From a virus, in IMG/VR virus record IMGVR_UViG_3300046727_000269: DNA of 60,630 bases; one strand, given 5' to 3'. Under the pieces are notes generated by a model, which was not told the DNA's origin, searched no databases, and worked only from the letters and a program-made list of their open reading frames with translations. This document shows, piece after piece, positions 22,925 through 44,577 of this stretch; position 1 is the first letter of the stretch; each line of letters opens with the position of its first letter. Made by a program: the position numbers and the translations under genes.

Positions 22925-22939
22925 ACGTGTACCTACCCT

Positions 22940-22952: not shown

Positions 22953-22995
22953 GACTATTGAGCTTTACCCGTTCTACGTGCTCGGGGACAGTCTA

Positions 22996-25562: not shown

Positions 25563-25563
25563 T

Positions 25564-26283: not shown

Positions 26284-26285
26284 GC

Positions 26286-28098: not shown

Positions 28099-30225
28099 TT
28101 AGTGCCTCGGCCAGAAGTACCCGTGCAGTCCCGCGACTACGTTCCCCACCCCCGCCGTCAGTGCCCCCGTGACGTTCGGTGCCGCGACGATGTACCGGAT
28201 CAGATCACCGGACCTGACTTGAAGCCCCCCGGCAATGGGTGACATGTTCTGTAGCGTGCCGATGCTCACCTCCATCAACCCACAGTCCCGCATGAAGCGG
28301 CCCGCAGATTCCAGCCGCCAAACAATGTCCCCAGAGCCCTCGACAAAGATTGGCACGGGGAACGCGGTGGGATCGGTAATGTACCCGTGGTACTGGCCCA
28401 GGATCACGCCATCGTAGCCTATGGGGACACGGAACTGGAATATCACGTTGTCACCCGAGGCCACCGTGGGTAACGGGATCGCCCCGGTAGGATTGAAGGC
28501 GATGGCTCCCTCGGGCGGTCCCATCGGCACTTCCTCGTGCTCGGAAAAGTTCCCGCCCCAGTCCCGCTCGTCAGTACAAAAACAGAACGGCTTCACCCCA
28601 CACTTGAGGAGTTCCCGGTTGATGAGCTTATAGAGGAGGTATTCTCGGCCTAAGCACGAATCAAAGTGGTTGAGGATGACGTGAATGAATCCTCTACCCC
28701 CCGTTGACGGTACTGGCGGGATGACGATAGAGCAATTTGCAGTTGCCGTTGCCCCGAGTGAATCAGTCGCTTGCACCGTGAAGGAGAAGGTGCCGGACAG
28801 TAATGGAATCCCCGTGATGATGCCGGTGGCGGGATCGAGGGTTAGGCCAGGTGGGAGAGAACCGGAAATGATGGCGTAGGTGTAAGGGGGCGTACCACCT
28901 GTCGCTACTACCGTCCCCGTGTAGAGGATGTTCAACGTGGCGGAACCGATGGGACACGTGACGATGACGGGGGCCACGACTCCTATGGATAAATGAAACT
29001 GCCCTTGATATATCTCCGTCCCCGCTTGAATTGGGAAAAGTCCAATCATTGCTCTGACGCCAAAACTAAGTTGGCGAACAGAGACAGAGTTGGGGGTGTT
29101 CTCCCCGTTAAGACCACCCGCTTGAGGCGGTGGCGTAACGGGGGGGTCCACCGCCTTGTCCCAGTAGACCGATTCCACCGCCCAAGGTCCTACCAACGCG
29201 GGGGACGTGGACTGGAGTACTTGATTCGGAGTATTCCCCGGCCCAGGCCCTTGCCACGTCCACATGGAGGTGAGAGTGAGGCCGTCTGGCGAAATGCAGA
29301 AGTCCGTCCAGAAAGTGTCCTCGTCCGCATTGATATCCGAGGCCACCACCACCGTTGCAAACACTGGCGGCGACACACTCATATCTGCCGTAAGCATGGT
29401 TGGTTGGATGGTGGAGGGGGTAGGGAAGAAGGGGAGGCACCAACCAATCTTGTTTTCCGCCGCTACAAATTTCCCCTGCGCGTTCCACCCTTGGCCGAGA
29501 TCGTAGCGATTGTCGTTCCAAGGGGTGGAGTAGGGGAACGCGACGGATTTTGCCGAGAACCCACCACCCGAGGTCCAGGTAGCCACGTAGTACTGGGCAT
29601 CCACCTGTGAGTCCCACGTCATCACCACCGTGTCGGCATTGTCAATCCCCATGAGGTTGACGAAGTTTGAAGCGGATAGACTGCCCGCCTGGAGTAGGTG
29701 AGGGGTGCCCCAGACTCCCGCTGAGGAACACGTTACCGCGAGTACGCTACCGGTGCCTGATGACGTATCCGTGTAGAATGCAACAAAGGTCCCCGTTGAG
29801 GTCCGTGCTAGAAGTTGGTTTGGTGCCGAGGCCCCCGCATTCGGCCCCCCCGTGGCAATCGAAGTCCACGTGTCGGTAGCCATGTTGAAACTGAAAATCG
29901 ACAGTGGGTTAGAAAACTTACCTACCCCTTGTTGCGTGAGGATGTAAAGGATATTGCCGCCAGACGACGGGTAGAAGCAGGAACTAAACCAGTCTTGGAT
30001 TCCCCCTGTTGGTGCTCCTGGGATGTCTTGTTCGGTGAAGGTCACTCCACTGTCAGTGGATTTGAAAACCCCGGTACGGATTGCTACCTGGGTAACGGCG
30101 TCGAAGACGGACAATACTTCGTAGATCGCGCCACCGCGCTCAAACGGGCCTTGGTTTCCGTCTCCTAGGTTGTACCCATAGATGATGTCCCCAGGCTGAA
30201 TGATGTGTGGTGTTGGTCCCGGCAT
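28099..30225 (-). CDS. Fibre/spike-like protein (708 aa): propeller-like N-terminus, Ig-like domain, C-terminal domain paralogous to 30955..31623
   Basis: Asp-box-like STDSGVTF; TGGTPPYTYAIISGSLPPGLTLDPATGIITGIP Ig-type repeat; C-terminal VPIGYDGV...FVEGSGDIVWRLESAGRFMRD...GYFWPRH matches the neighbouring 222-aa protein. Confidence 0.75.
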   Translation of the reverse strand: MPGPTPHIIQPGDIIYGYNLGDGNQGPFERGGAIYEVLSVFDAVTQVAIRTGVFKSTDSGVTFTEQDIPGAPTGGIQDWFSSCFYPSSGGNILYILTQQGVGKFSNPLSIFSFNMATDTWTSIATGGPNAGASAPNQLLARTSTGTFVAFYTDTSSGTGSVLAVTCSSAGVWGTPHLLQAGSLSASNFVNLMGIDNADTVVMTWDSQVDAQYYVATWTSGGGFSAKSVAFPYSTPWNDNRYDLGQGWNAQGKFVAAENKIGWCLPFFPTPSTIQPTMLTADMSVSPPVFATVVVASDINADEDTFWTDFCISPDGLTLTSMWTWQGPGPGNTPNQVLQSTSPALVGPWAVESVYWDKAVDPPVTPPPQAGGLNGENTPNSVSVRQLSFGVRAMIGLFPIQAGTEIYQGQFHLSIGVVAPVIVTCPIGSATLNILYTGTVVATGGTPPYTYAIISGSLPPGLTLDPATGIITGIPLLSGTFSFTVQATDSLGATATANCSIVIPPVPSTGGRGFIHVILNHFDSCLGREYLLYKLINRELLKCGVKPFCFCTDERDWGGNFSEHEEVPMGPPEGAIAFNPTGAIPLPTVASGDNVIFQFRVPIGYDGVILGQYHGYITDPTAFPVPIFVEGSGDIVWRLESAGRFMRDCGLMEVSIGTLQNMSPIAGGLQVRSGDLIRYIVAAPNVTGALTAGVGNVVAGLHGYFWPRH

Positions 30226-30247
30226 CTTTTCTTATTCCGGGTTCAGA

Positions 30248-30283
30248 CTACCGGGGGTACACGAACCACCCCGTGATGCTACA
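30248..30283 (-). pseudogene. Relic duplicate of the last 11 codons of gene 30955..31623
   Basis: Minus strand TGT AGC ATC ACG GGG TGG TTC GTG TAC CCC CGG TAG = CSITGWFVYPR*; the intact gene ends VSITGWVYPR*; they share AGCATCACGGG and then differ synonymously. Confidence 0.65.
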
Positions 30284-30292
30284 ATCAAATTC

Positions 30293-30952
30293 ATGCCCAC
30301 AGTTCCAAAACTGATCCCAAAAGCTGGTGATAGATTTGGACTCTGGACAGTGCTCGGCCCTGCCAGGGAGAAACATAACTATCGTGCGCGTTATTACTTT
30401 TGCCTTTGCGACTGTGGCACTGAAAGGGACGTGAATGTATACCGCCTCAGAGAAAGAACGTATTGCAGTTATGCACGCCATGAGGTAGGAAACACTGTTC
30501 ATGGGTTGTGTCGCGTGAAGGGAGCAGACGGACGTTCGATCAGAGATAAACAGACACCCGAGTATGTTGCATGGCGCAATATGAAACAGCGTTGCTACAA
30601 TCCAAATTTCTCTGGGTATGAGAGGTGGGGTGGTCGCGGCATCACCGTTTGCACTCGTTGGCTTGAGTCGTTTGAAAACTTTTTTCAGGACATGGGTAAA
30701 CGCCCAAGCTCCCGTCACACACTTGAACGCAAGAACAATTCTCTCAACTACACTCCTAACAATTGCAAATGGGCAACGAGAGAAAGGCAGTCGAACAACA
30801 CTAGGACTAATCGAATCCTCACGCACAACGGGAAGAGCCTGACTGTGGCTGATTGGGCCAGGGAAACGGGGATCTCCTACGTCGTTCTTTCGAGCCGTGT
30901 TAGGTATGGATGGTCCATTGAAAGAATACTCACGGCCCCAGTGAGAAAATAA
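30293..30952 (+). CDS. HNH-like (degenerate) homing-endonuclease-type protein, paralog 2
   Basis: EYVAWRNMKQRC...WGGRGITVCTRWLESFENFFQDMGKRP...LERKNNSLNYTPNNCKWATRERQSNNTR plus C-terminal HTH-like GKSLTVADWARETGIS; plus strand inside a minus-strand block; A/T-richer. Confidence 0.7.
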   Translation: MPTVPKLIPKAGDRFGLWTVLGPAREKHNYRARYYFCLCDCGTERDVNVYRLRERTYCSYARHEVGNTVHGLCRVKGADGRSIRDKQTPEYVAWRNMKQRCYNPNFSGYERWGGRGITVCTRWLESFENFFQDMGKRPSSRHTLERKNNSLNYTPNNCKWATRERQSNNTRTNRILTHNGKSLTVADWARETGISYVVLSSRVRYGWSIERILTAPVRK

Positions 30953-30954
30953 AT

Positions 30955-31623
30955 TCATCGAGGATATACCCATCCCGTGATGCTGACCACGATCTTACTC
31001 GTCGCGTTGATTCGTGCGTCGGCTCCGGGGGCGAAGGCGACGAAGAACTGAAGGATGTCCTCGGACCATACCCTAAGTCCGCCTCGTGGTACCGGGCTAG
31101 GTGACGTGAGACTGCCCAGGCTCGTCTTGATGTTCCCGTGGTCACGGAGGAAGCGGCCCGAGGCACTGAGCCGCCAGATGAGGTCACCGGACCCTTCCAC
31201 AAACCCCGTGGCGGTACCTCCAGCCCCCGGCAGAATCCCGCATACCACATCGGTAATCACACCATCGTATCCGACCGGCACCAACTCATTGCCCGATTGT
31301 GTGTTGAACGGGACCTGAGTATCAAGCCCGTTGAATCCCACCATCCCTGGGACTGCCAACAGGCCAATGGGCTTAAACCGTCTCCCCTCGGCGGGCATCG
31401 CGATCCAAGGGCGGGTAGTGTAGGGGGTGCGACCTCGGGGGCAACATATTTTACGTAATCCACCTCCCGCCACCATTTGGTTCCACAGCATCCGGTCAGA
31501 GTTCAGACAGGCATCGTACGAGTTGGGCCGTTGTGACGGCTTCTGGAGGCACGTGTTGATGATTACCGTGCTACGAGTTGTTTGGTACGCCGGTATTACC
31601 GCGTTGCCCTGTTGTGGGTCCAT
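30955..31623 (-). CDS. Virion-associated candidate (222 aa), paralog of the C-terminal domain of the 708-aa protein
   Basis: VPVGYDGVITD...FVEGSGDLIWRLSASGRFLRDHG...ITGWVYPR aligns with the C-terminus of 28099..30225. Confidence 0.65.
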   Translation of the reverse strand: MDPQQGNAVIPAYQTTRSTVIINTCLQKPSQRPNSYDACLNSDRMLWNQMVAGGGLRKICCPRGRTPYTTRPWIAMPAEGRRFKPIGLLAVPGMVGFNGLDTQVPFNTQSGNELVPVGYDGVITDVVCGILPGAGGTATGFVEGSGDLIWRLSASGRFLRDHGNIKTSLGSLTSPSPVPRGGLRVWSEDILQFFVAFAPGADARINATSKIVVSITGWVYPR

Positions 31624-32256
31624 CTATATCACCGCCTCTTCATACAACCCCGATTGCATCAGGAGTTGGCGCATCTGTTCCGGTGGTACGCACGGCTCGG
31701 CAATGAGGAGAGTGACTTGGCACGTCAAGGATTGACCAATGGGTGGCGTGCTCGTGTCCACGAGGCGATTGTAAATCTCAACGTCGATTAGACCCGGCTC
31801 TCCAATCAGTCCCGGTTGGGCGAACAGGAACGGGTTGCGGCGATTCTGACTACCATTCGCCGGACTCGCACAGGCGATTTGGTACGAGTAGATGTAGTCA
31901 GAGAAGAGGGCTGTTTCCGTACAGGCGTCGGTAACCTGCACATGGACATCTCCGTTGATGGTGCCCTGGACCAGGGAATCGTTGAGGGAGGCAGGGGCCG
32001 AGAAACAAATCCCCCAGAGGTATGATCCGGGGAGACAGTTCACTTGCCGCTCGATCTGAGTGAAGGGACCGATGGGGTTCTCGTTGTCGTCGGCGTCGGG
32101 GATGAGGTAGTGACGGCAACGGTACCCACGGGAGCGGCGGAGGACTTCCATTTGCGCGAGGGCACTGGCACGGTACGTCGTGCTGAGGTACAGCATACTC
32201 GCACTCAGTACGAATCCGTCGAGGATCGGGGGGTAGTCGATATTGGTCCCGCTCAT
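31624..32256 (-). CDS. Beta-rich structural candidate (210 aa)
   Basis: ORF track; abuts both neighbours (adjacent stop/start and ATGA overlap). Confidence 0.65.
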   Translation of the reverse strand: MSGTNIDYPPILDGFVLSASMLYLSTTYRASALAQMEVLRRSRGYRCRHYLIPDADDNENPIGPFTQIERQVNCLPGSYLWGICFSAPASLNDSLVQGTINGDVHVQVTDACTETALFSDYIYSYQIACASPANGSQNRRNPFLFAQPGLIGEPGLIDVEIYNRLVDTSTPPIGQSLTCQVTLLIAEPCVPPEQMRQLLMQSGLYEEAVI

Positions 32257-32402
32257 TGCAACGTCAACCTCTCTTTAAGACGGAAATTCTCCCAGCGCAA
32301 GGATGAGATCACCTCCCCTAACCGGCGTAGATTGTACGAGGCCAAGAAGGAATGGAAGGCCGGTTCCTTCCCAGGGTCGTGGTACAGTCCATCGGAATAC
32401 AT
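32253..32402 (-). CDS. Small ORF (49 aa)
   Basis: MYSDGLYHDPGKEPAFHSF...; fills the 175-nt gap; stop overlaps the next start (ATGA); weak RBS. Confidence 0.35.
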   Translation of the reverse strand: MYSDGLYHDPGKEPAFHSFLASYNLRRLGEVISSLRWENFRLKERLTLQ

Positions 32403-32431
32403 CACGGTGTTGTCACGGGCCTGTGTCACCC

Positions 32432-33286
32432 CTAGCACGGTATCCTCCGTACTCCGTGGAGCAGGAGTTGGAACGTCTGGGGGAGAACTGTCGGTGAAAA
32501 CAGTAGGCTCCAAATGTCGAAGTAGATGGCCCCATTCACGGGGAACAGGATCGGAGGGCACGGCCAGAAATTGAACTCACCAGAACTGGTTTGTGGGTTC
32601 AGATGGAAGAACATATTGGAGAGGACGGGACGGTTGCTCCTCGCCATTCGATTGTTGTCGTACAGGGTGACCTTGAACTGGGAGGACTGTTGGTTGTCTT
32701 GTAGTGCGAGTTCAATCCTGCGTAGCTCGAAATCGAAGTCCTCAACCTTGATCTGAATTTGCGTCGGCCCATTCACCACTCCCCCCGTGGTCGCGTAATT
32801 GTTGATGGAGAGGGTGTAGGGGATCGCGTACGGCTTCTCGTAATACTTGTAGGCGGACGGTACCGGGTCCGACACCGTGTTGGCCCGTCTCTTAGCTCCG
32901 GTGTAAACCATCTGGGACTTGTACAGAGTGGTCCCGGTATCCGTCCCCGCCACCACCAACGCCACCGTTTGGAGGTCTTGCCGGATGTAACTGTTGTCCG
33001 GGTACCAGAGTTCAGGAGTCACCACCATATTGGCGAACTGATTCGCCGCCGTGCCCAACGTCATGAAGTCGGAGGACCTGAACCTCCCTTGCCAGTCGTA
33101 GAACTTGAGGCCCTGGGCGATGGTCGAGAGGCCGGACCAATAACGGAGAAGGAAATCCCCGTCTACCACGTGAGGGCCGACTTGGAATAGCGTTTGCCCA
33201 TTCGCAATCCCACTTACATCCTGGGCATCAAACACGTACTGGTAGAACGTGTCGCCGAATCCCGTTGGTGTTGTGTAATCGTACAC
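32432..33286 (-). CDS. Two-unit jelly-roll-like protein (284 aa), candidate double-jelly-roll major capsid protein
   Basis: Two internal units (GDFLLRYW...KFYDWQGRF...ELWYPDNSYIRQDL and FDFELRRI...VTLYDNNRM...PILFPVNGAIYFDIW) resemble the single unit of 33294..33719. Confidence 0.6.
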   Translation of the reverse strand: MYDYTTPTGFGDTFYQYVFDAQDVSGIANGQTLFQVGPHVVDGDFLLRYWSGLSTIAQGLKFYDWQGRFRSSDFMTLGTAANQFANMVVTPELWYPDNSYIRQDLQTVALVVAGTDTGTTLYKSQMVYTGAKRRANTVSDPVPSAYKYYEKPYAIPYTLSINNYATTGGVVNGPTQIQIKVEDFDFELRRIELALQDNQQSSQFKVTLYDNNRMARSNRPVLSNMFFHLNPQTSSGEFNFWPCPPILFPVNGAIYFDIWSLLFSPTVLPQTFQLLLHGVRRIPC

Positions 33287-33293
33287 GGGGACT

Positions 33294-33719
33294 CTACGCT
33301 CCCTGGGCGACTTGGTAACGGTTCGCCCCGATGAAAAGGATCTGTCCAGTATTCGTCGCCACGCTCAAATCCTGGATATTCAGGTAGATCCTGCCGCCAG
33401 CGGGATAGAAAATCTCCGGGAACATGGGGAAGGGATCACCGGGGGAGTTGGGAAGGTTCGTGCTGAACGTCAACCCCGAACTCAGGTAGTACCCTTGCCC
33501 GTCTTGGAACTGCACGGCGAAGAGGCCAGTGGATTGAAACACGAGCCCTCTCCACACGAAGTCGGCTTCCGTGAAGATACTCACCACCTGCCCCTGTAAA
33601 AGTTGTGACGCCGTGAGGGAAATGTTGTACGTGTAGTTGAAAGGTACCTCGATGTACCCGACCCCCAAGTTGTCCCCCGCGATGCCTTGCACGGCGGGTG
33701 GTGCTATTGGATTCTGCAT
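33294..33719 (-). CDS. One-unit jelly-roll-like protein (141 aa), candidate penton or minor capsid protein
   Basis: ADFVWRGLVFQSTGLFAVQFQDGQGYYLSS...FPEIFYPAGGRIYLNIQDL; strong RBS TTAAGGAGCG before the ATG. Confidence 0.6.
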   Translation of the reverse strand: MQNPIAPPAVQGIAGDNLGVGYIEVPFNYTYNISLTASQLLQGQVVSIFTEADFVWRGLVFQSTGLFAVQFQDGQGYYLSSGLTFSTNLPNSPGDPFPMFPEIFYPAGGRIYLNIQDLSVATNTGQILFIGANRYQVAQGA

Positions 33720-33778
33720 GGTATCGCGCTCCTTAAAAATCTTTCGGGCATACGGCCCCGACTCTTACCCATTACCTT

Positions 33779-33791
33779 TTTCCCTGTGAAA
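33779..33791 (-). promoter_or_regulatory. TTTCACAGGGAAA motif, exact copy, gene sense
   Basis: 59 nt upstream of ATG 33719; 6 nt before a 22-codon mini-ORF (MGKSRGRMPERFLRSAIPCRIQ) that overlaps that start. Confidence 0.65.
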
Positions 33792-33881
33792 GGCCGGAGT
33801 GCCGCCGCGTGGGAGGGATAAGGGGGACGCGAGCAACGCCCCAATTCCCCTGGGTAAGCAGCACCCCGGACCCATCGGACT

Positions 33882-33920
33882 CGCGGGGTGGAGGAACGGG
33901 TAAGGAACCCCACCCCCGCG
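33882..33920 (-). other. GC-rich hairpin downstream of the capsid-like gene (attenuator or terminator-like, no U tract)
   Basis: CGCGGGGTGG / CCACCCC(C)GCG arms, 10 bp with one bulge and a 17-nt loop; 34 nt after the stop of 33954..34598. Confidence 0.4.
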
Positions 33921-33953
33921 AGAACTCGCAACAACGAAAGAGGACCAGTATTC

Positions 33954-34598
33954 CTACTGGACGCCTCTCGCGTGTAGACCGTCGAGAATCACTTGCATGT
34001 TGAGACCAGTACCACCGCCCGATGTCGTGGTAAGGGTAACGCTGGTCCCTACCAACTGGCAATAGAACGACGCTTGGTTGTCAATCACGATGTTGATTCC
34101 CAACTCGTGCCGGTGCATCTTCCCCGGCATTCCGTTGGTAAGAGCGGTACTGGCCGAAGAGAACCCCGTCACGCCGCCGCCGACCGGATAGAAGATCAGA
34201 GGCGCACGGTTGTAGGATTTTTCGCCAATCCAGAACTCCAGAGCGAAGGACCGGAGCATGGTGTTGAGATCCGCGAGGAGGGTCCCCGCATCAAACCACA
34301 GTCCAATCCCCATTGCGGCGAAGGCTTGAGGGGCGTCCAACCGTTTTGCGGTTTGTACGTTGGTGTCCGCCAACGTCTTCCCCGTTTGATTGCCAGTGGT
34401 GAAAAACTGGGTCAAATTGGTGATGACTGCTCCCGCCGCCCAAGGTGCGTTTGTTGCGGGATTCCAGGAACGATCATACAACGGCTCGTGCTGGACATCC
34501 ATCGCGTTGGGCTGATACGTGGTGCCGGAAAATTGGTTTTGAATCCAATTCGCCAGTCCCAGTGCATCGGCCCCGCCAACTACTTGTGTGCTAGGCAT
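33954..34598 (-). CDS. Capsid-like beta-rich structural protein (214 aa)
   Basis: ORF track; followed by a strong hairpin, consistent with a highly expressed structural gene; FALEFWIGEKSYNRAPLIFYPVGGGVTG; no family assigned by eye. Confidence 0.6.
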   Translation of the reverse strand: MPSTQVVGGADALGLANWIQNQFSGTTYQPNAMDVQHEPLYDRSWNPATNAPWAAGAVITNLTQFFTTGNQTGKTLADTNVQTAKRLDAPQAFAAMGIGLWFDAGTLLADLNTMLRSFALEFWIGEKSYNRAPLIFYPVGGGVTGFSSASTALTNGMPGKMHRHELGINIVIDNQASFYCQLVGTSVTLTTTSGGGTGLNMQVILDGLHARGVQ

Positions 34599-34655
34599 AT
34601 ATTTGTGTTTTCATTTTCCTTTCTGAGATGAGCGTGGCAAAGGGCGAGTGCCCTA

Positions 34656-35669: not shown

Positions 35670-35684
35670 GTTTTCCTTTCTAAA

Positions 35685-37520: not shown

Positions 37521-37522
37521 TC

Positions 37523-37535
37523 TTTCCCTGTGAAA
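37523..37535 (-). promoter_or_regulatory. TTTCACAGGGAAA motif, exact copy, gene sense
   Basis: In the 22-nt gap between stop 37543 and ATG 37520. Confidence 0.65.
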
Positions 37536-37542
37536 AACTCTC

Positions 37543-38001
37543 TTACAGCTTCGGTGCTGCTTCCTCTCCTGCCTTCACCACTCCCGGACCAACCACAGGA
37601 GTAACCGGCACTCCCGCCGCCACCGCCGCGACATCCGCCGCCCTCCCTTTCACGGCGGTATTGTAGATGAGCCAATTGAACCCGTACGACTTCATAGCAC
37701 TCACCCCCGCGCTGTAAATGGCCGGTCCCGTCAACCCCGTGATCGTCAATGCCCCCAGGCTCGGGTCATAGTGGTAATGAATCCCCACCCCCGCGATCAA
37801 CGCGGCCAGCCACGATAACGCCCTGTTCAGCCCCGACGACTCCTGGGAGAAAGCCTTGAGCACGGGCCACTGACTGTTCTTCACCGCCTGGATGAGAGCA
37901 ACGGAAATGGCAGAGGTCGAGATTATCGCGGGCAAATCCGTCGATACCGCCATCGGGTTCTCCACCGCCGCCTGTGCCGCCGCTTGAAGTAATAGCATCA
38001 T
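37543..38001 (-). CDS. Membrane protein (152 aa)
   Basis: Start taken at ATG 38001 (MMLLLQAAAQ); several hydrophobic Ala/Gly-rich segments. Confidence 0.55.
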   Translation of the reverse strand: MMLLLQAAAQAAVENPMAVSTDLPAIISTSAISVALIQAVKNSQWPVLKAFSQESSGLNRALSWLAALIAGVGIHYHYDPSLGALTITGLTGPAIYSAGVSAMKSYGFNWLIYNTAVKGRAADVAAVAAGVPVTPVVGPGVVKAGEEAAPKL

Positions 38002-38036
38002 CCTAAAGTTGCTCCCACGCCCCCTTCCCCTTCCCC

Positions 38037-38258
38037 TTACCTGCCCCTCTCCCAAAATGGACGAGTGACATCGCCACCGCTCCCCGTGTAATTCAACTCA
38101 CGATTTGCAAACAGGAGGATGAGGATAATCAGCAACACCCCTACCGCCCACTTCGCCGGGGCGAAGGTAGGAAACGATCTATCGCACACGTAGAACAACC
38201 CCCACCCGAGGGCGGCGAGTACCGCGATGCCGATGATGATTTCAATGAGTTGGCCCAT
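38037..38258 (-). CDS. Small membrane protein (73 aa, two TM)
   Basis: Start ATG 38258 after TAAGGAGTTCAAC; LIEIIIGIAVLAALGWGLFYV and WAVGVLLIILILLF. Confidence 0.55.
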   Translation of the reverse strand: MGQLIEIIIGIAVLAALGWGLFYVCDRSFPTFAPAKWAVGVLLIILILLFANRELNYTGSGGDVTRPFWERGR

Positions 38259-38268
38259 GTTGAACTCC

Positions 38269-38739
38269 TTAGAACGCCTTCGCCGCCGCCCGGTACGCCC
38301 GTCTCCCTCTCCCCGCGTACGAGTGTTGCTCCCCACCTACGAACATGAACAGGGCCAGTGCCGCACCTGCCGCCCAGACTGGGACGCCAAAGAATGTCGA
38401 CTGCAACGCGGCCATATAGTTCCCAGCGGAAAGGTTCCCGGTAAAGGTCCCGTAGTCCGTGGTGAAGTCACCCAAGCCACGGATACCATTGATCTGGCCC
38501 CCGCCACATCCACCCCCACAGCCTCCCCCGCACCCGCACCCACTCACACCCTGACCAATCAGCTTCGTCTGTCCCCGCGTGTAATCCTTCACGGGATTCT
38601 GTGGGACTGGAAATGATCCGGGTAGAATCTCACTGATGCCGCGAATGTACTTCACCGGTTGCACGGGATTCTGCGGCACAACATAGAATCCGGGTAAGAG
38701 ATCCCCAAGCCCCGGTGCCGGATGATGACTGAGTTGCAT
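38269..38739 (-). CDS. Membrane protein (156 aa) with two PGxxxVPQNP motifs and a Gly/Cys-rich stretch
   Basis: GLGDLLPGFYVVPQNPVQ and SEILPGSFPVPQNPVK; GCGCGGGCGGGCGGG; TM FFGVPVWAAGAALALFMFVGG. Confidence 0.6.
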   Translation of the reverse strand: MQLSHHPAPGLGDLLPGFYVVPQNPVQPVKYIRGISEILPGSFPVPQNPVKDYTRGQTKLIGQGVSGCGCGGGCGGGCGGGQINGIRGLGDFTTDYGTFTGNLSAGNYMAALQSTFFGVPVWAAGAALALFMFVGGEQHSYAGRGRRAYRAAAKAF

Positions 38740-38756
38740 AATCTTTTTCCTCTCCC

Positions 38757-39221
38757 CTATTCCTTCGCCAGAAAAAACGCCCCGACCACCCCAGCCAAAA
38801 GCAGGGTTGTTGTCGAGAGCCCAAACAGGTTCGACGTGCTCGGGTTCGTCAGGGCCGCACTGGTGCTCCCGCTCGCCAAGTTAATCACGCCACCTTGCAA
38901 CATCACTCCGGGACACAGGGGCATCGTATTGTTCAGTGCATCCAGGGCGGAGATGATTTGCCCTCTCAAGTCCCCCGCTGGGAGTGCGTTTATTACGGTA
39001 GCGATCACACTCACGTTGATGTTGGTGGGGATGTACCCAGTAAGATTCGTCGTCACCGAGTTCACCGTCATCATCTGCCCCGCCCAGTTGTTCAGAGTGT
39101 TCTGGATGTCGGACTCGTACACCCCAGTACAATCCCCCGTGACGTTGAATGAGATTACCGTGCCGGGTTGGAGTACGTCCGTATCACTCATCCCGAGATT
39201 TCCCAGCCCGTGCAATCTCAT
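38757..39221 (-). CDS. C-terminally anchored membrane protein (154 aa)
   Basis: MRLHGLGNLG N-terminus; C-terminal TTTLLLAGVVGAFFLAKE. Confidence 0.6.
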   Translation of the reverse strand: MRLHGLGNLGMSDTDVLQPGTVISFNVTGDCTGVYESDIQNTLNNWAGQMMTVNSVTTNLTGYIPTNINVSVIATVINALPAGDLRGQIISALDALNNTMPLCPGVMLQGGVINLASGSTSAALTNPSTSNLFGLSTTTLLLAGVVGAFFLAKE

Positions 39222-39228
39222 CCCTTTC

Positions 39229-39555
39229 CTACCGTCTCCCCTTTAAAAGAAAGAACGCGAGTATCCCCCCTGCAACATAGAGGTACGTGTTGGGAATCCC
39301 CGCAATCAAACTGGACGTGGACGGAATTGGGAGACAGGCCAAATCGTTCGGGTCCATGTATTGCCCACTCGGACACGCGGCACTGATGTTAGGGGGACAA
39401 TACGTCTGCCCCGGTGCCAGTGGTCCCATCGACCCTTGCGGAATACAGGGAGGTGGGGCCGACGCCGTAGCGCACCCGGCAATGGTATCCCCCGTGATGG
39501 GATCGACCGCCCCCACCACACACGTCCCGTCCGTCGCCACCACTCCCATCCTCAT
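39229..39555 (-). CDS. Cys-rich C-terminally anchored membrane protein (108 aa)
   Basis: Start ATG 39555 (ATGA overlap); C-terminal YLYVAGGILAFFLL. Confidence 0.55.
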   Translation of the reverse strand: MRMGVVATDGTCVVGAVDPITGDTIAGCATASAPPPCIPQGSMGPLAPGQTYCPPNISAACPSGQYMDPNDLACLPIPSTSSLIAGIPNTYLYVAGGILAFFLLKGRR

Positions 39556-39752
39556 TTCTTTGCGGCTCCTAATGCCACCACGCCCGCCCCGACCAACCAG
39601 AACCACCAGGGAGTATCACAGGCGGTGGCACTGGTCCCGCTCACTCCCGTATCGACCCCACTTGCCTCCGCTGCCGTTTGCGTTGGCCCCGCCACGGTAA
39701 CGTAGGGCCTCGCCTGACAGTCCATCTGGTTAAACCAGCCCAGGCACATCAT
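39552..39752 (-). CDS. Small C-terminally anchored membrane protein (66 aa)
   Basis: C-terminal PWWFWLVGAGVVALGAAKK. Confidence 0.5.
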   Translation of the reverse strand: MMCLGWFNQMDCQARPYVTVAGPTQTAAEASGVDTGVSGTSATACDTPWWFWLVGAGVVALGAAKK

Positions 39753-40366
39753 TGGATTGTTTGACCTCCTACGGGACGGTTGCGGAAAACGGACGGGGCT
39801 CCGATCCGGGGCCGGTTGTTTGCGAGGCTACCGCCGAAACTCATGGAGGGGACTTGAGCCACCGTGTTGGCCGGAACCACGCCACGCAACCCACTCACCC
39901 CTACGTTGGGATTGGCCGGGTTAATCCCCGCCGCCGTCAGCGCAGAAAGGAACTGGTCCACGCTCATCCCCGGCATGGGGTCAACTCGGGCACCGAACGC
40001 GGCACCGAACTGTTGGCCGGTTAAAGCCGGTGGGTACAGTTGATTCCGGTAATAATCCCACTGGTCGGCATTCATACTCGTGACACCGCCCGCCGCCGTC
40101 AGGAGTTTGGTTCGTACGTCCGCCGTTGTGCTGGGGGCCGGTTGCGTGGACCCGCCTGGAGTCTGGGTCTGGGTCGTGACGGTGGTGGTGGCAGGGGCCG
40201 TGGATTGTGCCGCCCCACCAAACCACGTGTCCCACCAAGTCAGGGCTACCTGTTGCCCCGAGGCATTGAACGCGGCACCGGATGGCCCGTACCTCGTCAC
40301 GTACCAATACGCGGCACCCAGCCCCCCGACCACCAGTACCATCGTCATCATGTTGTCTTTTTTCAT
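39749..40366 (-). CDS. N-terminally anchored membrane protein (205 aa)
   Basis: MMTMVLVVGGLGAAYWYV TM; Thr/Pro/Gln-rich ectodomain. Confidence 0.6.
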   Translation of the reverse strand: MKKDNMMTMVLVVGGLGAAYWYVTRYGPSGAAFNASGQQVALTWWDTWFGGAAQSTAPATTTVTTQTQTPGGSTQPAPSTTADVRTKLLTAAGGVTSMNADQWDYYRNQLYPPALTGQQFGAAFGARVDPMPGMSVDQFLSALTAAGINPANPNVGVSGLRGVVPANTVAQVPSMSFGGSLANNRPRIGAPSVFRNRPVGGQTIQ

Positions 40367-40659
40367 TACTCGTGTCCCTTCTTCCCACCAAACATGAGGA
40401 AGGCCAGTCCCGCGAGAATCCCCGCCGCCAATAGGGGATTGTCATTCACCCACTGGTTGATCCCGGAACAGGAGGGGCCTACCACTACGGGGGTGCTATT
40501 GGTGATGGAGGGCATCGGGTTGAGCAGGGATGAGGGAGTAAGCCCCGGTTGCGGTGACGCCGTAAGAAGCTGGGAGGTCGCGGTCATGGACGGCATCGAC
40601 GAGGTAGTGGATACCGGCATCGAATCTGCGGGGGTCGAGATGTAAGAGAGTTCAGCCAT
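40366..40659 (-). CDS. C-terminally anchored Ser/Thr/Pro-rich membrane protein (97 aa)
   Basis: C-terminal PLLAAGILAGLAFLMFGG. Confidence 0.55.
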   Translation of the reverse strand: MAELSYISTPADSMPVSTTSSMPSMTATSQLLTASPQPGLTPSSLLNPMPSITNSTPVVVGPSCSGINQWVNDNPLLAAGILAGLAFLMFGGKKGHE

Positions 40660-40662
40660 ATC

Positions 40663-40974
40663 CTAGTTCTCCATCAACTTTCCAACAAAAAATCCGACAC
40701 CACCAAACACTACCGCCGCCCAACTCGGGTTGTGAATCATATCGTGAGGGCCACCAATCTCAGCACACAACGTCATTGGATTATCCGGTGGAGACTGACC
40801 AACGGGCAAAGTTATCTGTTGCCCGGTTTGAAGATTCTGCCACGCAATTGTGCCTTGTCCTCCAGCCGTAAGCAAAGACATTTGTGTCCAGTGCGTTCCA
40901 CTTGACGTAGTTCCACCACACATCAGCTTTGGGCCAACGAACGCACCGACCGCAGCTAAGATGAATGGCATCAT
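40663..40974 (-). CDS. Membrane protein (103 aa, TM at both ends)
   Basis: Start ATG 40974 (ATGA overlap); MMPFILAAVGAFVGPKL and AAVVFGGVGFFVGKL. Confidence 0.55.
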   Translation of the reverse strand: MMPFILAAVGAFVGPKLMCGGTTSSGTHWTQMSLLTAGGQGTIAWQNLQTGQQITLPVGQSPPDNPMTLCAEIGGPHDMIHNPSWAAVVFGGVGFFVGKLMEN

Positions 40975-41654
40975 TTCTTCTTCATCACCATCAGCAACAC
41001 GACGGCACCACCGGCCAGTGCTACCCACATTGGTATACCGACGAATGGGATTGGGTCAGTGAGCCAGCTCCAGCTATACGTCGCCGGTCCCGTGTTCGTA
41101 ATACTCGTACCGTTCGCCAGTGCCACACTCCCACCCTGAGTCTGGTTGTTCACGACCTGGGTACTCGTCACGGGAGTAGTGACCACGGGTGGAGCCAGTA
41201 CGTTGCCACCAGCTTGGTTTGTCGTCACCCCCGTCGTGTTGGGTGCCACGGTATTGAGCACATTCGGTGCCGGGACGTACGTGGGGGGAGCCACGATCTG
41301 TCCTGATTGAATCAGGTAGGCAGTATTCGCTACCGTGCTGTTGTACGCGGCGGTATATTGCGCCACGTAGGAACTGATGAGGGCAGAGACGGAATTGGGA
41401 TCACAAGGAGTAGGGCTCACGTCCGCGCACGCGTTGATGGCGGCACTCGTCAACGTCTCCTGTACAACTGCGGGAGTGGCCGCGTTGCCCTGCTCTACGG
41501 CAAACTGCAACCCGTTCATAAACGAGTTGAAGTAGGTGGTGATTTGCCCCGTCAAGTCGTACGCCCCGAGCCCGTGGACGCCGGTTGGTAATCCCGGCAC
41601 CGTCAGGGCGGGGACGATTCCGTTGAGGCGGGGGGAGAAGTCGGAAAGTCTCAT
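40971..41654 (-). CDS. C-terminally anchored protein (227 aa), MRLSDFSP N-terminus
   Basis: Start ATG 41654; shares GACTTCTCCCCC (DFSP) with the next gene upstream; C-terminal IPMWVALAGGAVVLLMVM. Confidence 0.6.
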   Translation of the reverse strand: MRLSDFSPRLNGIVPALTVPGLPTGVHGLGAYDLTGQITTYFNSFMNGLQFAVEQGNAATPAVVQETLTSAAINACADVSPTPCDPNSVSALISSYVAQYTAAYNSTVANTAYLIQSGQIVAPPTYVPAPNVLNTVAPNTTGVTTNQAGGNVLAPPVVTTPVTSTQVVNNQTQGGSVALANGTSITNTGPATYSWSWLTDPIPFVGIPMWVALAGGAVVLLMVMKKK

Positions 41655-41659
41655 GTGAT

Positions 41660-42478
41660 TTAATCGCCCCCCATCATCGTGAAGGCGAGCACCCCGCCCC
41701 CGATTAAAAGCAGTGGGAGTGGAAAGGAGGAAAGGAATCCACCCCCACTCGCACCTGTAGTCGTGGAACCGGATGCGGAACTTGATCCCGCCAACAGTGC
41801 CAACGCTTGCCCCGCCTCGGGTGGATCGGGGACGACGGTAGGATCGTTCGCAATGGGATCGCGGAGGTCGGCGAACGCATCGCACCCGGTACACAGGCCA
41901 CCGCCGACTTGTACTGCGTTGGGAGCATTGCAGCACCAGGAGGAGGCACCGCCTCTCTGCCGTTCACTGATGCACCGTTGACCAGCGGCACCCAACGAGG
42001 GATCACCACAGGCTTTTACCAGTGCCGTCCAACCTACATCGAAATTGTTCAACGCGGCCAACTGGAGGGACTTGTAGTGGACCGGGGCATTCATGTACTG
42101 GTTAAGATTCTGCTGCCAGTACGTTTGGAGTTGGTTGGCAATACTCGTTGCCGCCACACACGTCTGCCCGCACCCCCTGAAGAGGGAGGCGATACCGATA
42201 CCGATTGCCGCGAGGCCCACCACGATGGCTGCAATTGGTGCGGCGGGTCCGAACGCGGCGGAAATCATTCCCATGTGCGCGAGGCCGGTAAGAATGGTCC
42301 CAGTCATTGCCGCCCCCTGCATTGCTTCGGATGCGATGGTGGTGGAAGTGACATCGAGGCCGAGGGAACCTACACCAGTGCCCCGTGTACCCTTGGCCCG
42401 TGCGTAGGTACGCGGGGCGAATGCGCTGGGGATGAATGCGAGGGGGTGGCCCGTGGTGGGGGAGAAGTCGAGGCGCAT
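41660..42478 (-). CDS. Membrane protein (272 aa), MRLDFSP N-terminus, Cys-rich ectodomain
   Basis: Start ATG 42478; TM IAAIVVGLAAIGIGIASLF and C-terminal LLLIGGGVLAFTMMGG. Confidence 0.6.
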   Translation of the reverse strand: MRLDFSPTTGHPLAFIPSAFAPRTYARAKGTRGTGVGSLGLDVTSTTIASEAMQGAAMTGTILTGLAHMGMISAAFGPAAPIAAIVVGLAAIGIGIASLFRGCGQTCVAATSIANQLQTYWQQNLNQYMNAPVHYKSLQLAALNNFDVGWTALVKACGDPSLGAAGQRCISERQRGGASSWCCNAPNAVQVGGGLCTGCDAFADLRDPIANDPTVVPDPPEAGQALALLAGSSSASGSTTTGASGGGFLSSFPLPLLLIGGGVLAFTMMGGD

Positions 42479-42675
42479 TAGAATCTGATATCCTCGACTT
42501 GAAATGTCATCCCTAAAACGACTGGTACGATCACGCAAAGTACGAATCGCGGCACGTAAGAAAAGTGGGAACAAAAAGCATCGACGTAGTAGTAGTGGGA
42601 GTGAAGTTGTTGTCCTATGCGCGATAGGAATGGCAGTTGGCTACTGGCTTGGCAAACTTGGCAAACGGCCCTCAT
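42478..42675 (-). CDS. Small Cys-rich membrane protein (65 aa)
   Basis: ORF track; TAATG overlap with the downstream gene and 1-nt gap after the upstream mini-ORF. Confidence 0.45.
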   Translation of the reverse strand: MRAVCQVCQASSQLPFLSRIGQQLHSHYYYVDAFCSHFSYVPRFVLCVIVPVVLGMTFQVEDIRF

Positions 42676-42676
42676 T

Positions 42677-42763
42677 TTAGAATCCCGCTTCCTTCCGTGC
42701 GTACTTCTTCAGTCTCGACTTACTCTCAGCGGGCATCACCAAGTAGGAACCGTTGTAGGCCAT
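42677..42763 (-). CDS. Mini-ORF (28 aa, MAYNGSYLVMPAESKSRLKKYARKEAGF)
   Basis: Hand translation; GGAG RBS; fills the gap exactly; weak. Confidence 0.3.
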   Translation of the reverse strand: MAYNGSYLVMPAESKSRLKKYARKEAGF

Positions 42764-42771
42764 CGTCTCCG

Positions 42772-43380
42772 TTACCGTCCCCGGCTCATCATCATGAACG
42801 CGAGTCCCACCACCGCCACCATCATTAACGTGCTACTGTTGATCCCCCCGAAACTCCCGCTCCCAATCGGCGTCACGAAACTCCCTTGCGCCCCGCCCCC
42901 GGTATTTCCATAGATCCCCGGAAGGTTCTGGGTATTCCCCGTGGGCTGAGAATAAATCACATTCCCCTGTGGGTCCTTGTAATACGTCCCAGGGTTCTGT
43001 GCCGCCATGATCTTCGCCATGCTCGTGCTGGACACGTTGATGACGTTCGCCAGTGCATTCCAATTGAAGTCGGGGCTCCCGGATGGAATAACGGTAGGAA
43101 CAGTACCCCCGCCTCCCGCCCCCGGTGCCGCCCCGCCACTATCCATCGTGCCGAGGTACACGGAACCATCGGGGCACATTCCCCCGGCATCCACCTGGGC
43201 ATTCAAACAGTCCCCAATCCCCTGCACCCCTCTCACCCCGCCCCGACTCTGCATCCGGTCCACGCCACCCACGAGTAACCGTTGCGCCCCCCAGTCCACG
43301 CGGCGATACTGTCGAGGAATCATCAATTCAGCCGGTAGACTTCTCGCCCCCGGTGGCAGTGTCTGAGTAATGACGTTCAT
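42772..43380 (-). CDS. C-terminally anchored Gly-rich protein (202 aa)
   Basis: C-terminal STLMMVAVVGLAFMMMS; stop and start abut the neighbouring genes. Confidence 0.6.
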   Translation of the reverse strand: MNVITQTLPPGARSLPAELMIPRQYRRVDWGAQRLLVGGVDRMQSRGGVRGVQGIGDCLNAQVDAGGMCPDGSVYLGTMDSGGAAPGAGGGGTVPTVIPSGSPDFNWNALANVINVSSTSMAKIMAAQNPGTYYKDPQGNVIYSQPTGNTQNLPGIYGNTGGGAQGSFVTPIGSGSFGGINSSTLMMVAVVGLAFMMMSRGR

Positions 43381-43848
43381 CTAATCGTTCCTCCATTCCG
43401 GGAACACGCCGCCCAATTTCTCCACCATCTGAATCCGGGTGGCGTCGGGCATATTCGTCAGCCCGTTGATCTGGATGAAGCTCCCCACGTCGATGATGGT
43501 CTGCAACATTCCGTCCGGCGTGGGGAACGTCCCCGTGATGGTATAGATGCGCGGGTCCTCATCCCCGCCCGCGTTGAAGTATTGCAACTTGCAAAACGGT
43601 GGGTACGAGTGATTCAATCCCGTGTCCGCGATCTCAAGCACGGCCCGTTCCGCGTTATCAAACGTGAGGAGTTCCAAATACTCCACGAGATCGTTGCACT
43701 GGTGCTTGGTGGCGAATCCCAGCATTTCACGTAGGGGGAGTTGTGGCGTCCAGGGGAATTTCTGGTTGGGATCGAACGGGACGTACATCGCGTCCTCTTT
43801 CGTGGGACGAATCACTTGCTTGAGGCTTGCGGGTAAAGGGAGTGTCAT
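43381..43848 (-). CDS. Hypothetical soluble protein (155 aa)
   Basis: ORF track; stop and start abut the neighbouring genes. Confidence 0.6.
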   Translation of the reverse strand: MTLPLPASLKQVIRPTKEDAMYVPFDPNQKFPWTPQLPLREMLGFATKHQCNDLVEYLELLTFDNAERAVLEIADTGLNHSYPPFCKLQYFNAGGDEDPRIYTITGTFPTPDGMLQTIIDVGSFIQINGLTNMPDATRIQMVEKLGGVFPEWRND

Positions 43849-44577
43849 TTAACTGTGTGCCACCTTCCAAACTTGTTTCGCGCCCCACCAGATACCGAGG
43901 GCGAGTGCCGCCGTACCTACCGCGTTCCCCACGAGCCAAGCCAACCGATCCCACACGGGCCACTCTTTATACTTCCCGTATTGGTTGGGGACTTCCCACC
44001 CCGGATACTCGCCATGACTGGCATCAAGGGGGAGGCGTTCCACTTGGCCCGCGTCATTCACGGGGTACGCCACGACATACACGTGGGAGAACTGGGTAGG
44101 TACTCTTTCATCCGCCCCGACAGTCACAAAGGCGCACCCGATCCCATTCGCCTTCAATAACGCGGCCAAGTAGCACGAGAAGTCGTCACAGTCCCCTACC
44201 CCCTTGCCCTCGTCCACGTACCGGGCCATGTCGAGGGGCCGGATACTCGTCTCAATCACTTCCTCTTCGGGATATCCCCCGATCCCCGCCCCCGTCACCT
44301 CGTCCCGCTGGAATCGAATCCTGCCATTCTTCTTCCACGCGTGTTGATAGAGGGAGTAGGCGCGGGACTTCTCGGACCCCTCGCCTGCCAGTCCTACTGC
44401 CCTCGCCTTGAACCACGGGTCCGCACTGTCCTGGGCGGCACGCTCCAGCATGAGTGCCAACGTCTGCCCCACCTGGGTATCCGGGTCCCAGCTTAGGTTC
44501 TGAACCCGGTACTTCACCTCGCCCAATTGGGAATGGTACTGGGTGCCCTGTGCCCCGGCCTGAAATCCCAGTCTCAT
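43849..44577 (-). CDS. Transglutaminase-like cysteine protease-fold protein with C-terminal membrane anchor
   Basis: KGVGDCDDFSCYLAALLKANGI ... FSHVYVVAY ... LPLDASHG gives a Cys-His-Asp arrangement; C-terminal LVGNAVGTAALALGIWWG. Confidence 0.65.
   Translation of the reverse strand: MRLGFQAGAQGTQYHSQLGEVKYRVQNLSWDPDTQVGQTLALMLERAAQDSADPWFKARAVGLAGEGSEKSRAYSLYQHAWKKNGRIRFQRDEVTGAGIGGYPEEEVIETSIRPLDMARYVDEGKGVGDCDDFSCYLAALLKANGIGCAFVTVGADERVPTQFSHVYVVAYPVNDAGQVERLPLDASHGEYPGWEVPNQYGKYKEWPVWDRLAWLVGNAVGTAALALGIWWGAKQVWKVAHS

Follow-up and report, generated by a model that had tools for sequence, protein, structure and literature searches.

What kind of particle does a 60-kb virus build when none of the genes of a tailed virion can be recognised in its genome? 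IMG/VR record IMGVR_UViG_3300046727_000269, from an uncultured soil bacterial virus, raises this question. We analysed the whole stretch of 60,630 nucleotides (the window), with emphasis on the virion module at 28099..44577. A first-pass annotation, made from the letters alone, had seen no tailed-phage hallmark in this module and had proposed jelly-roll proteins and small membrane proteins of an internal-membrane virus.

That proposal is supported. The module encodes a protein of two jelly rolls whose nearest structural matches are double jelly-roll (DJR) capsid proteins and their cellular DJR relatives. With fair but not high confidence, we favour a tailless virion in which an icosahedral shell of jelly-roll proteins is associated with a lipid membrane, in the manner of PRD1 or PM2. 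The window is probably a member of a lineage not yet described, of tailless membrane-containing DJR phages that are unusually large and have no packaging ATPase. Among known systems, PM2 (Corticoviridae) and the PRD1-type tectiviruses come closest in fold and gene logic. The first-pass annotation spoke of a new kind of prokaryotic virus; the novelty holds at the level of a new lineage inside a known architectural class, not of a new virion class.

Genome and searches

Terminal comparison of the window shows that 1..127 is an exact direct repeat of 60504..60630, leaving a unit of 60,503 bp. This 127-bp terminal overlap is an assembly overlap marking a closed genome, circular or circularly permuted. 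Because the genome is complete, a missing gene is meaningful. The whole window contains no tRNA genes.

In a crude automatic gene set, the minus strand holds about five-sixths of the genes. A long single minus-strand morphogenesis operon runs from 44577 down to about 23457. In order, it encodes a papain-fold-like anchored protein, about 13 small membrane proteins, a charged protein of 611 residues, a basic protein, a 214-residue beta-sandwich protein, a 141-residue single jelly-roll (SJR) protein, a 284-residue DJR protein, proteins of 210 and 222 residues and a 708-residue candidate spike.

About 50 open reading frames (ORFs) were scanned with Pfam and/or PHROGs. They comprise most of the smaller module ORFs and all ORFs of at least 200 residues, except a 209-residue HNH-like ORF (9250..9879, plus strand), a 219-residue ORF (19583..20242) and six sugar-island or recombinase ORFs. 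AlphaFold2 models cover two proteins, those of 284 (32432..33286) and 214 residues (33954..34598). For comparison we used the loci of eight relatives (L001–L008), found in metagenomes of forest soil and other sources; three of them are IMG/VR contigs of 41–61 kb.

Capsid proteins

The candidate major capsid protein is the 284-residue DJR protein (32432..33286, minus strand), assigned by AlphaFold2, Foldseek and hhalign. Its model, built on a 64-sequence alignment, is all-beta with two blocks of about eight strands (pLDDT, the predicted local distance difference test, 89.8; pTM, the predicted template-modelling score, 0.88). In the PDB, the best Foldseek match is peptidylglycine alpha-hydroxylating monooxygenase (PHM; E 1.2e-4) and the best viral match is PM2 P2 (2vvf; E 3.3e-4, probability 0.97). 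Further PDB matches are PR772 P3 (E 5e-4), the capsid proteins of Sulfolobus turreted icosahedral virus (STIV) and Singapore grouper iridovirus (SGIV), and also DUF2961 (4kq7) and GH172 (8ah3). In BFVD, the model matches capsid proteins of tectivirus GC1 (E 1.4e-4), Satyrvirus and pithoviruses. Since exactly four families with a DJR fold are counted, namely viral DJR capsid proteins, DUF2961, PNGase F and PHM (PMC8812541), this match list is essentially the DJR fold; the best matches represent three of the four families. An enzyme of the PHM type is argued against by the 64-sequence alignment, where no histidine is invariant and one is nearly so. A PDB profile search with the DJR protein gave a single weak hint, the parvovirus VP2 jelly roll, below threshold (E 0.05).

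The 284-residue protein is a tandem duplication, its N-terminal half aligning with its C-terminal half in hhalign at 97.2% (E 3e-11). A third copy of the unit is free. The 141-residue SJR protein (33294..33719, minus strand) matches the halves of the 284-residue protein in BLASTP (E 6e-5 and 1e-3), and the halves of its family in hhalign at 97.2% (E 3.5e-11) and 95.8% (E 7e-9). It is the most conserved protein of the module (51–75% identity across relatives) and a candidate for the penton at the five-fold vertex, for which the 222-residue protein is an alternative candidate. The families of the 214-, 210-, 222- and 156-residue proteins, included in the same run as negative controls, showed no relationship to the unit (hhalign probabilities below 1.5%). 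The repeated jelly-roll unit is limited to 32432..33719, twice in the 284-residue ORF and once in the 141-residue ORF. The first-pass annotation had extended such a unit over 31624..34598, which is too broad given these control values: its claim stands for 32432..33719 and falls for 33954..34598 and 31624..32256. As we read the sequences, no molecular feature of this virus is more unusual than the homology still detectable between the free SJR protein and the two putative capsid barrels.

Variants of the DJR protein with 400 residues carry an insertion of about 110 residues at residue 199/200, in the D'E' loop (strands 4–5) of the second barrel. DJR capsid proteins usually grow outward-facing towers in this loop. 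The place of the insertion is the one hint, and an indirect one, that the barrels may stand vertical to the capsid surface in trimeric capsomers. Two relatives have two ORFs in place of one DJR gene, with the break in the second barrel's D'E' loop (L004 9992..11273, P0092–P0094; L008 9941..10924, P0158–P0160). The split coincides with the insertion site and could be a sequencing error, a true split or recoding.

Some family members are longer, at 510–745 residues (P0192, P0200, P0215, P0220, P0243 and P0283); fusions of one jelly-roll unit to FG-GAP propellers, in other branches of the family, have 550–750 residues. The jelly-roll unit is C-terminal in them, as the second unit only or as the whole DJR domain (P0215), and FG-GAP beta-propeller repeats lie upstream of it in both long members with a Pfam match. 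The architecture suggests that the jelly-roll unit may also be used as an anchor for host-recognition domains.

Tailed-phage hallmarks and packaging ATPase

None of the scanned ORFs has a Pfam or PHROGs match to a terminase, portal, HK97 capsid, tape measure, tube, sheath or baseplate. The lone 'tape measure' PHROG match is a cell-wall-hydrolase-type domain of about 95 residues in a 168-residue ORF of the lysis cassette (15280..15786). Both modelled conserved proteins are beta-sandwiches and not HK97 folds, a check whose sensitivity is limited to these two models. The by-eye impression that the module lacks tailed-phage hallmarks thus survives profile searches of a complete genome; no HK97 capsid, portal or terminase came up among these ORFs, the finding that the first-pass annotation had named beforehand as decisive against it.

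In a six-frame search for Walker-A motifs, the two helicases and ORF 1905..2756 alone proved to have genuine P-loops, which leaves no Walker-A ORF unassigned as a terminase candidate. The same search found no FtsK/HerA-type packaging ATPase in the complete genome, as the first-pass annotation had already cautioned. ORF 1905..2756 (minus strand) encodes a 283-residue ATPase of the replication/recombination module. Its family is AAA_24 (Sak4/RecA-like), with 21 of 36 homologues matching PF13479 (best E 1.2e-10), in agreement with its earlier description as an AAA_24-like protein and the only non-helicase P-loop protein. We considered it as the packaging ATPase and rejected it because of this family assignment. 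The structural-module loci of the eight relatives, about 157 kb in all, contain a single Walker-A-like match, which is non-conserved and lies in the L003 homologue of the 611-residue protein; no packaging ATPase was found in them.

DJR virus groups without a packaging ATPase are already accepted, so its absence is not disqualifying. They comprise FLiP-like viruses and a metagenomic 'Odin'-type group, with small, simply organised genomes (PMC8812541).

Two large proteins had been singled out for a portal and terminase check, which returned no family, PDB or P-loop match for either. The highly charged 611-residue protein (35685..37520, minus strand) has no assignable fold, no P-loop and no match in Pfam, PHROGs or PDB sequence and profile searches. 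We judge it unlikely to be a portal, because in most of the eight relatives its conservation is confined to the C-terminal 135 or so residues and it has no family matches. The 634-residue protein (44790..46694, plus strand) is transcribed divergently from the operon and contains coiled-coil and Pro/Gln-rich regions.

Membrane proteins and the basic protein

Upstream of the capsid genes lies a block of 14 small ORFs (37543..43848, minus strand; about 65–270 residues with refined starts) that hydropathy marks as the predicted viral membrane proteome. In 12 or 13 of them there are one or two hydrophobic segments, most of which are tail anchors at the C-terminus. Over 37543..44577, at least one such segment is present in 13–14 of the 15 minus-strand ORFs, in line with the series of small transmembrane proteins reported there at first pass. 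In the crude gene set, ORFs with hydrophobic segments are enriched in the region (10/13 inside, 19/78 outside; Fisher p = 4e-4). The block has no Pfam or PHROG match. Six of its families, starting at 37543, 39229, 39552, 39749, 40366 and 41660, are also present in relatives, with conserved synteny.

The first gene of the operon (43849..44577, minus strand) encodes a 242-residue protein with a hydrophobic C-terminal anchor and a weak match to a transglutaminase core, a papain-like Cys peptidase fold (PF01841, E 3.4e-4, below the gathering score). It is a candidate virion-associated peptidase or cell-wall enzyme. Two adjacent membrane proteins within the block (40971..41654 and 41660..42478, minus strand) have near-identical N-termini, MRLSDFSP and MRLDFSP, and may be paralogues. 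The second, rich in Cys, has two hydrophobic segments and shares 46% identity with its L007 counterpart.

The basic protein of 337 residues (34656..35669, minus strand) is, from composition and hydropathy, a candidate DNA-condensing core protein tethered to the membrane. Lysine and arginine make up 42% of its first 190 or so residues, which contain repeated NPRR-type motifs. The C-terminal 140 or so residues are Gly/Ala-rich and hydrophobic, with membrane segments, and end in one VPQNP motif. These features bear out the earlier description of an Arg/Lys-rich protein with a hydrophobic C-terminal half. Its homologues contain 38–43% Lys+Arg in seven of eight relatives; in the eighth, L006, the ORF as called is truncated (228 residues, 15%). 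Gene callers often miss the basic half in relatives.

The terminal motif, G[DE][IL]xxGx[FY]xVPQNP[IVL], is common to two otherwise unrelated membrane proteins. The second is a 156-residue tail-anchored protein (38269..38739, minus strand), which is conserved in all eight relatives and has two copies near its N-terminus. The three sites in the window are at 34748, 38607 and 38679 on the minus strand. The motif is kept in seven of eight homologues of the 337-residue protein (missing in L007) and in all eight of the 156-residue protein, at capsid-protein identities of only 31–55%. Docking and proteolytic or other processing are both conceivable roles for this peptide.

Vertex and surface proteins

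The candidate spike or receptor-binding protein has 708 residues (28099..30225, minus strand). Its N-terminal 415 or so residues are variable, followed by a He_PIG Ig-like domain at residues 418–502 (PF05345, E 5.8e-13) and by a conserved C-terminal domain that it has in common with the 222-residue protein (30955..31623, minus strand). The latter, a candidate for the vertex or for anchoring the spike, matches the last 190 or so residues of the 708-residue protein at a BLASTP E of 6e-23. In relatives, the shared anchoring domain is present in one short and one or two long proteins. The neighbouring 210-residue protein (31624..32256, minus strand) is a conserved part of the structural module, with 34–54% identity in the eight relatives. 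Neither the 210- nor the 222-residue ORF has a fold assignable by hhalign or by PDB sequence and profile searches.

Beyond the spike gene lie three Ser/Thr/Gly-rich proteins (23457..27725, minus strand; 479, 239 and 701 residues with refined starts), which by composition and N-termini are possible fibre or surface proteins. Each has a signal-peptide-like hydrophobic N-terminus. Among the three, only the first 150 or so residues of the 479-residue protein are conserved in relatives.

Relatives and distribution

All eight relatives have the same order of genes: membrane proteins, large protein, basic protein, 214-residue protein, SJR, DJR, 210-residue protein, 222-residue protein and spike. Lysis genes of the SLT or Amidase_2 type and sugar-modification genes lie near their structural modules. 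At 90% identity the DJR family forms 96 clusters, not one of which bears a protein name or a Pfam domain. An exhaustive profile search extends it to at least 374 clusters at 50% identity (323 with E <1e-10), all uncultured. Many members lie on contigs of 57–67 kb.

The DJR family was not found in PHROGs or in Pfam, including PF11175 and the PHM families. Searches with tblastn of the DJR and 214-residue proteins against 50,697 GenBank phage records gave no match, and PDB sequence and profile searches with the DJR, AAA_24, 214-, 222-, 210-, 611- and 634-residue proteins gave nothing significant. No relative was found among 185,579 GTDB species, with one genome each. In the literature searched there is no description of a comparable bacterial DJR lineage of about 60 kb; a myxophage preprint proved unrelated, and the DJR viruses of ANME-1 have genomes of 10–11 kb.

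Other modules

Outside the virion module, the recognisable genes include an ERCC4 nuclease and two helicases, of the DEAD_2 and UvrD families. The family-A polymerase is split into separate genes about 2.8 kb apart: the PolA polymerase half (54000..55439; PF00476, E 7e-78) and the PolA 3'-5' exonuclease half, which is fused to a UDG-family domain (58233..59747). This PolA shares only about 30% identity with any PolA from a phage. A replication module of this type (split PolA, AAA_24, Cas4-like nuclease and two helicases) is common in tailed phages. A replication module of tailed-phage type and a module for jelly-roll morphogenesis are thus combined in one chimeric genome. The split polymerase, the two helicases and the glycosylation island listed at first pass were all recovered in the 60,503-bp unit by Pfam and PHROGs.

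The lysis cassette (13867..15786, minus strand; PF01510, phrog_2276, phrog_873) comprises an Amidase_2 endolysin (PF01510, E 1.6e-27), a lipoprotein with an LVGC lipobox, two small ORFs that each start with a membrane segment, and the 168-residue wall-hydrolase-type protein, which has a C-terminal membrane anchor. The hydrolase-type domain of this last protein is otherwise found within tape-measure and endolysin PHROGs. A cassette with an Amidase_2 endolysin indicates a peptidoglycan-bearing host bacterium, probably diderm (Gram-negative).

Between the structural and lysis genes lies a sugar-modification island (16054..23460, minus strand). It encodes several GT2 glycosyltransferases, an RmlD/epimerase-methyltransferase fusion, a methyltransferase and a cupin-like ORF. 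In relatives, comparable sugar genes flank the structural module (L005 10800..13540; L006 5146..7640), including DegT and hexapeptide transferases. Virus-encoded glycosylation of virion proteins is a possibility.

HNH homing endonuclease genes occupy module junctions. One (30200..30952, plus strand; phrog_374, E 8e-58) lies between the spike gene and the gene for the 222-residue protein and is missing from the corresponding position in relatives; it is a mobile insertion outside the virion gene set. Another (53473..54015, minus strand) abuts the gene for the PolA polymerase domain, and the HNH-like ORF 9250..9879 (plus strand) is a third of this kind. The window also encodes a ParB (HTH_ParB and ParB_N; 46790..47764, minus strand), a second, weakly matching ParB-like nuclease (4647..5228, minus strand) and a serine recombinase or resolvase (11711..12400, minus strand), recognised by eye from its N-terminal motif. 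These three genes fit a circular replicon, perhaps a plasmid-like prophage or one that resolves dimers.

Comparison with known viruses

PM2 (Corticoviridae, Vinavirales) has a tailless capsid, an internal membrane, many small membrane proteins, a genome of about 10 kb, a rolling-circle Rep and the P9 ATPase. The present virus resembles it in its circular genome map and in a compact candidate DJR capsid protein (284 residues; 269 in the PDB chain of P2). It differs in having 60.5 kb, PolA, two helicases and AAA_24 with no packaging ATPase; the searches of GenBank phages gave no sequence similarity, and the TM-score to P2 is only 0.25.

The genomes of tectiviruses (Kalamavirales) are linear, about 15–18 kb long and bounded by inverted terminal repeats; they encode a terminal protein, the FtsK/HerA-type ATPase P9 and a PolB that is protein-primed. 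In the P31/P5 vertex of PRD1, a base protein and a spike share one domain. Fold matches to PR772 P3 and to Gluconobacter phage GC1 link the DJR protein to this family, which also includes PRD1. Other likenesses are an SJR penton candidate, a late-operon block of small membrane proteins, a virion-type wall hydrolase, and a candidate vertex made of a short protein and a longer spike with a common domain. The domain shared at the putative vertex is C-terminal here, however, not N-terminal. Also unlike tectiviruses, the virus has a direct and not an inverted terminal overlap, a unit of 60,503 bp, a family-A polymerase and neither a terminal protein nor a P9-type ATPase, and both putative capsid barrels and the penton candidate are still related in sequence.

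More broadly, the 284-residue model has the two jelly-roll barrels in one chain that characterise Bamfordvirae and Tectiliviricetes, with TM-scores of only about 0.25, and the FtsK/HerA (A32/P9-like) packaging ATPase of these taxa is absent. A DJR capsid protein without such an ATPase is also the arrangement in the FLiP-like Finnlakeviridae and the 'Odin'-type group, and the FLiP penton is among the non-significant fold matches of the 214-residue model. FLiP has single-stranded DNA of about 9 kb, whereas here the genome is of double-stranded DNA (dsDNA) type, 60.5 kb long, and has its own polymerase, recombination, glycosylation and lysis modules. Viruses of Helvetiavirae type (Sphaerolipoviridae, Thermus phage P23-77) are tailless with an internal membrane and vertical SJR capsid proteins from adjacent genes. 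They have two separate SJR capsid proteins and an ATPase; the present virus has a fused DJR chain, a free third copy and no ATPase. The first-pass annotation gave about 31 kb as the upper end for cultured members of such groups; the range is not capped there, as the cultured membrane-containing Salisaeta phage SSIP-1 has about 44 kb. In sequence, none of the GenBank phage records was matched.

Cellular DJR proteins (PHM, PNGase F, DUF2961/GH172) have the same two-jelly-roll fold, and PHM is the top PDB match. The present family differs in having no conserved copper-binding His cluster, and its gene belongs to the structural operon of a virus, not to a locus for sugar utilisation. Of the features of Caudoviricetes (terminase, HK97 capsid, portal and tail genes), none was found among the ORFs scanned. 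PMC11071308 describes Preplasmiviricota, the phylum to which the prokaryotic DJR viruses belong, as having comparatively short dsDNA genomes, <50 kb; this limit is exceeded both here (60.5 kb) and in the relatives (57–67 kb).

Assembly model

In the assembly route that we propose, the 284-residue DJR protein would form trimeric, pseudo-hexameric capsomers, and its 141-residue SJR paralogue would form pentons. The 222- and 708-residue pair would build the vertex and receptor-binding complex. The small tail-anchored proteins would populate a host-derived lipid vesicle, the cytoplasmic face of whose membrane would meet the shell, and the VPQNP peptide on two membrane proteins may dock membrane to shell. 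Given a circular map and no encoded packaging motor, we also propose a motor-free route, more speculatively: the genome would not be pumped into a preformed procapsid; the Lys/Arg-rich membrane-anchored protein would condense the DNA, and membrane and shell would assemble around it.

Several points weigh against a tailless, membrane-containing DJR virion. The lipid membrane and the particle shape are inferred from gene content alone. The lack of a packaging ATPase is the failure of one hallmark of most PRD1-like viruses. The Foldseek matches of the 284-residue model (E 1e-4 to 1e-5) have TM-scores of 0.2–0.3 (about 0.25 to P2) and a root-mean-square deviation of about 17 Å, so the orientation of the barrels may differ from that in capsomer-forming DJR proteins. 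Its top PDB match is an enzyme, PHM, and not a capsid protein; its BFVD matches include jelly-roll tail-fibre and receptor-binding proteins of tailed phages; and no sequence link was found between it and any characterised capsid family. It may not be the major shell component, since the 214- and 141-residue proteins are more conserved. A Lys/Arg domain alongside DNA inside the membrane is topologically awkward, and the signal-peptide-like N-termini encoded downstream of the spike are unexpected for a virion assembled in the cytoplasm.

Alternative explanations

Could another protein form the shell? The 214-residue beta-sandwich protein (33954..34598, minus strand) is, from its AlphaFold2 model and conservation, a candidate second shell, cement or vertex protein. 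It is the second most conserved protein of the module (45–66% identity across relatives), and its model has an N-terminal helix followed by a beta-sandwich. We think it unlikely, though worth keeping in mind, that this protein, alone or with the 141-residue SJR protein, is the major shell protein of a jelly-roll virus and the 284-residue protein a minor, vertex or decoration protein, an arrangement that can be likened to the vertical single-jelly-roll capsids of sphaerolipoviruses or portogloboviruses. The 214-residue family is larger than the DJR family (146 and 96 clusters, respectively, at 90% identity) and more conserved, and its gene is first among the shell genes and is followed by a long conserved gap with a GC-rich hairpin that could set higher expression. 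The best fold matches of the model are all jelly rolls: VP2 of infectious bursal disease virus, TNF/C1q, the FLiP penton and polyomavirus VP1. None of these is significant, however (best E 0.04), and the model is moderate (pLDDT 80, pTM 0.70), so that the AlphaFold2 and Foldseek check proposed for 31624..34598 gave matches to DJR families for the 284-residue protein and only non-significant jelly-roll matches for this one. TNF/C1q-like jelly rolls are typical of trimeric spike knobs such as PRD1 P5, and such matches point to knobs rather than shells. A DJR protein with an SJR paralogue is the textbook hexon-plus-penton pair.

The gap itself (33720..33953, minus strand) is 234 nt of non-coding sequence after the gene for the 214-residue protein, in an otherwise tightly packed operon. 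Gaps of about 100–250 nt lie in the same place in L001 and L005–L008. The GC-rich hairpin inside it is CUCGCGGGGGUGG...CCACCCCGCGAG, and the overall fold of the gap is marginal (z = -1.8). A promoter-like site lies just upstream of the same gene (34640..34613). A promoter and terminator scan of 27.5–47 kb gave nothing above shuffled expectation.

The many membrane proteins and the lack of a packaging motor would also suit a pleomorphic, externally enveloped or otherwise non-icosahedral virus, a membrane-wrapped nucleoprotein whose jelly rolls are spikes or carbohydrate binders. The large proteins with signal-peptide-like N-termini adjoin the spike gene, the glycosylation island adjoins the module, and the DJR fold also occurs in carbohydrate-active cellular proteins. 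We rate this explanation as improbable. In the pleomorphic membrane viruses known so far, genomes are small and structural proteins few. The DJR family has no PHM-type His cluster in its 64 sequences, and unless the shell is icosahedral, a conserved DJR protein, an SJR paralogue and a short/long vertex-type pair are difficult to account for.

A highly divergent tailed phage, with terminase, portal and HK97 capsid escaping profile searches and the jelly rolls belonging to fibres or a baseplate, is very improbable. It would account for the tailed-phage-type replication module and for the several BFVD matches of the DJR model to tail or receptor-binding proteins, headful packaging would suit the circular map and its terminal overlap, and structures were predicted for only two proteins. 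Yet the complete genome holds no candidate terminase, Walker-A motifs being confined to the two helicases and AAA_24 and likewise absent as a conserved feature from the structural loci of eight relatives. About 50 scanned ORFs gave no match to a head, portal or tail family, and the large proteins are conserved only at one end (611 residues) or have signal-peptide-like N-termini.

We give equally little credence to a plasmid-like element whose DJR protein is a cellular-type sugar-active or sugar-binding protein of a surface-glycan island: ParB, the serine recombinase, the large sugar-modification island and an enzyme as top PDB fold match are outweighed by the lysis cassette (Amidase_2 endolysin, lipoprotein and small membrane proteins), phage-type HNH homing endonucleases, three relatives catalogued in IMG/VR, contig sizes held tightly to 57–67 kb, no conjugation genes detected and no relative in 185,579 species-representative genomes.

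Implications

Cultured tailless membrane-containing phages are few and small. A DJR lineage of about 60 kb, widespread in soil, would raise the prokaryotic size ceiling for this architecture, and would show that a tailed-phage-type replication module (PolA, AAA_24 and helicases) can join a jelly-roll morphogenesis module. It would also bring in a large group now overlooked by tools for virus detection and by databases of protein families. A large genome without a packaging ATPase, together with a conserved basic anchored protein, makes motor-free encapsidation experimentally testable. The homology between the putative capsid barrels and the SJR protein bears on the origin of DJR capsid proteins, either a duplication that took place in viruses or the capture of cellular DUF2961-like proteins, a debate for which PMC8812541 gives the background.

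Taken together, a bolder reading is possible but doubtful: an order- or class-level lineage of bacterial varidnaviruses that includes the largest prokaryotic DJR viruses, preserves the step from SJR to DJR and encapsidates its genome without a motor. If this is true, the circular 60-kb DNA would be condensed by a histone-like Lys/Arg protein, VPQNP would be a membrane-to-shell connector, and the capsid barrel would have been duplicated within a viral lineage, independently of the proposed DUF2961 origin.

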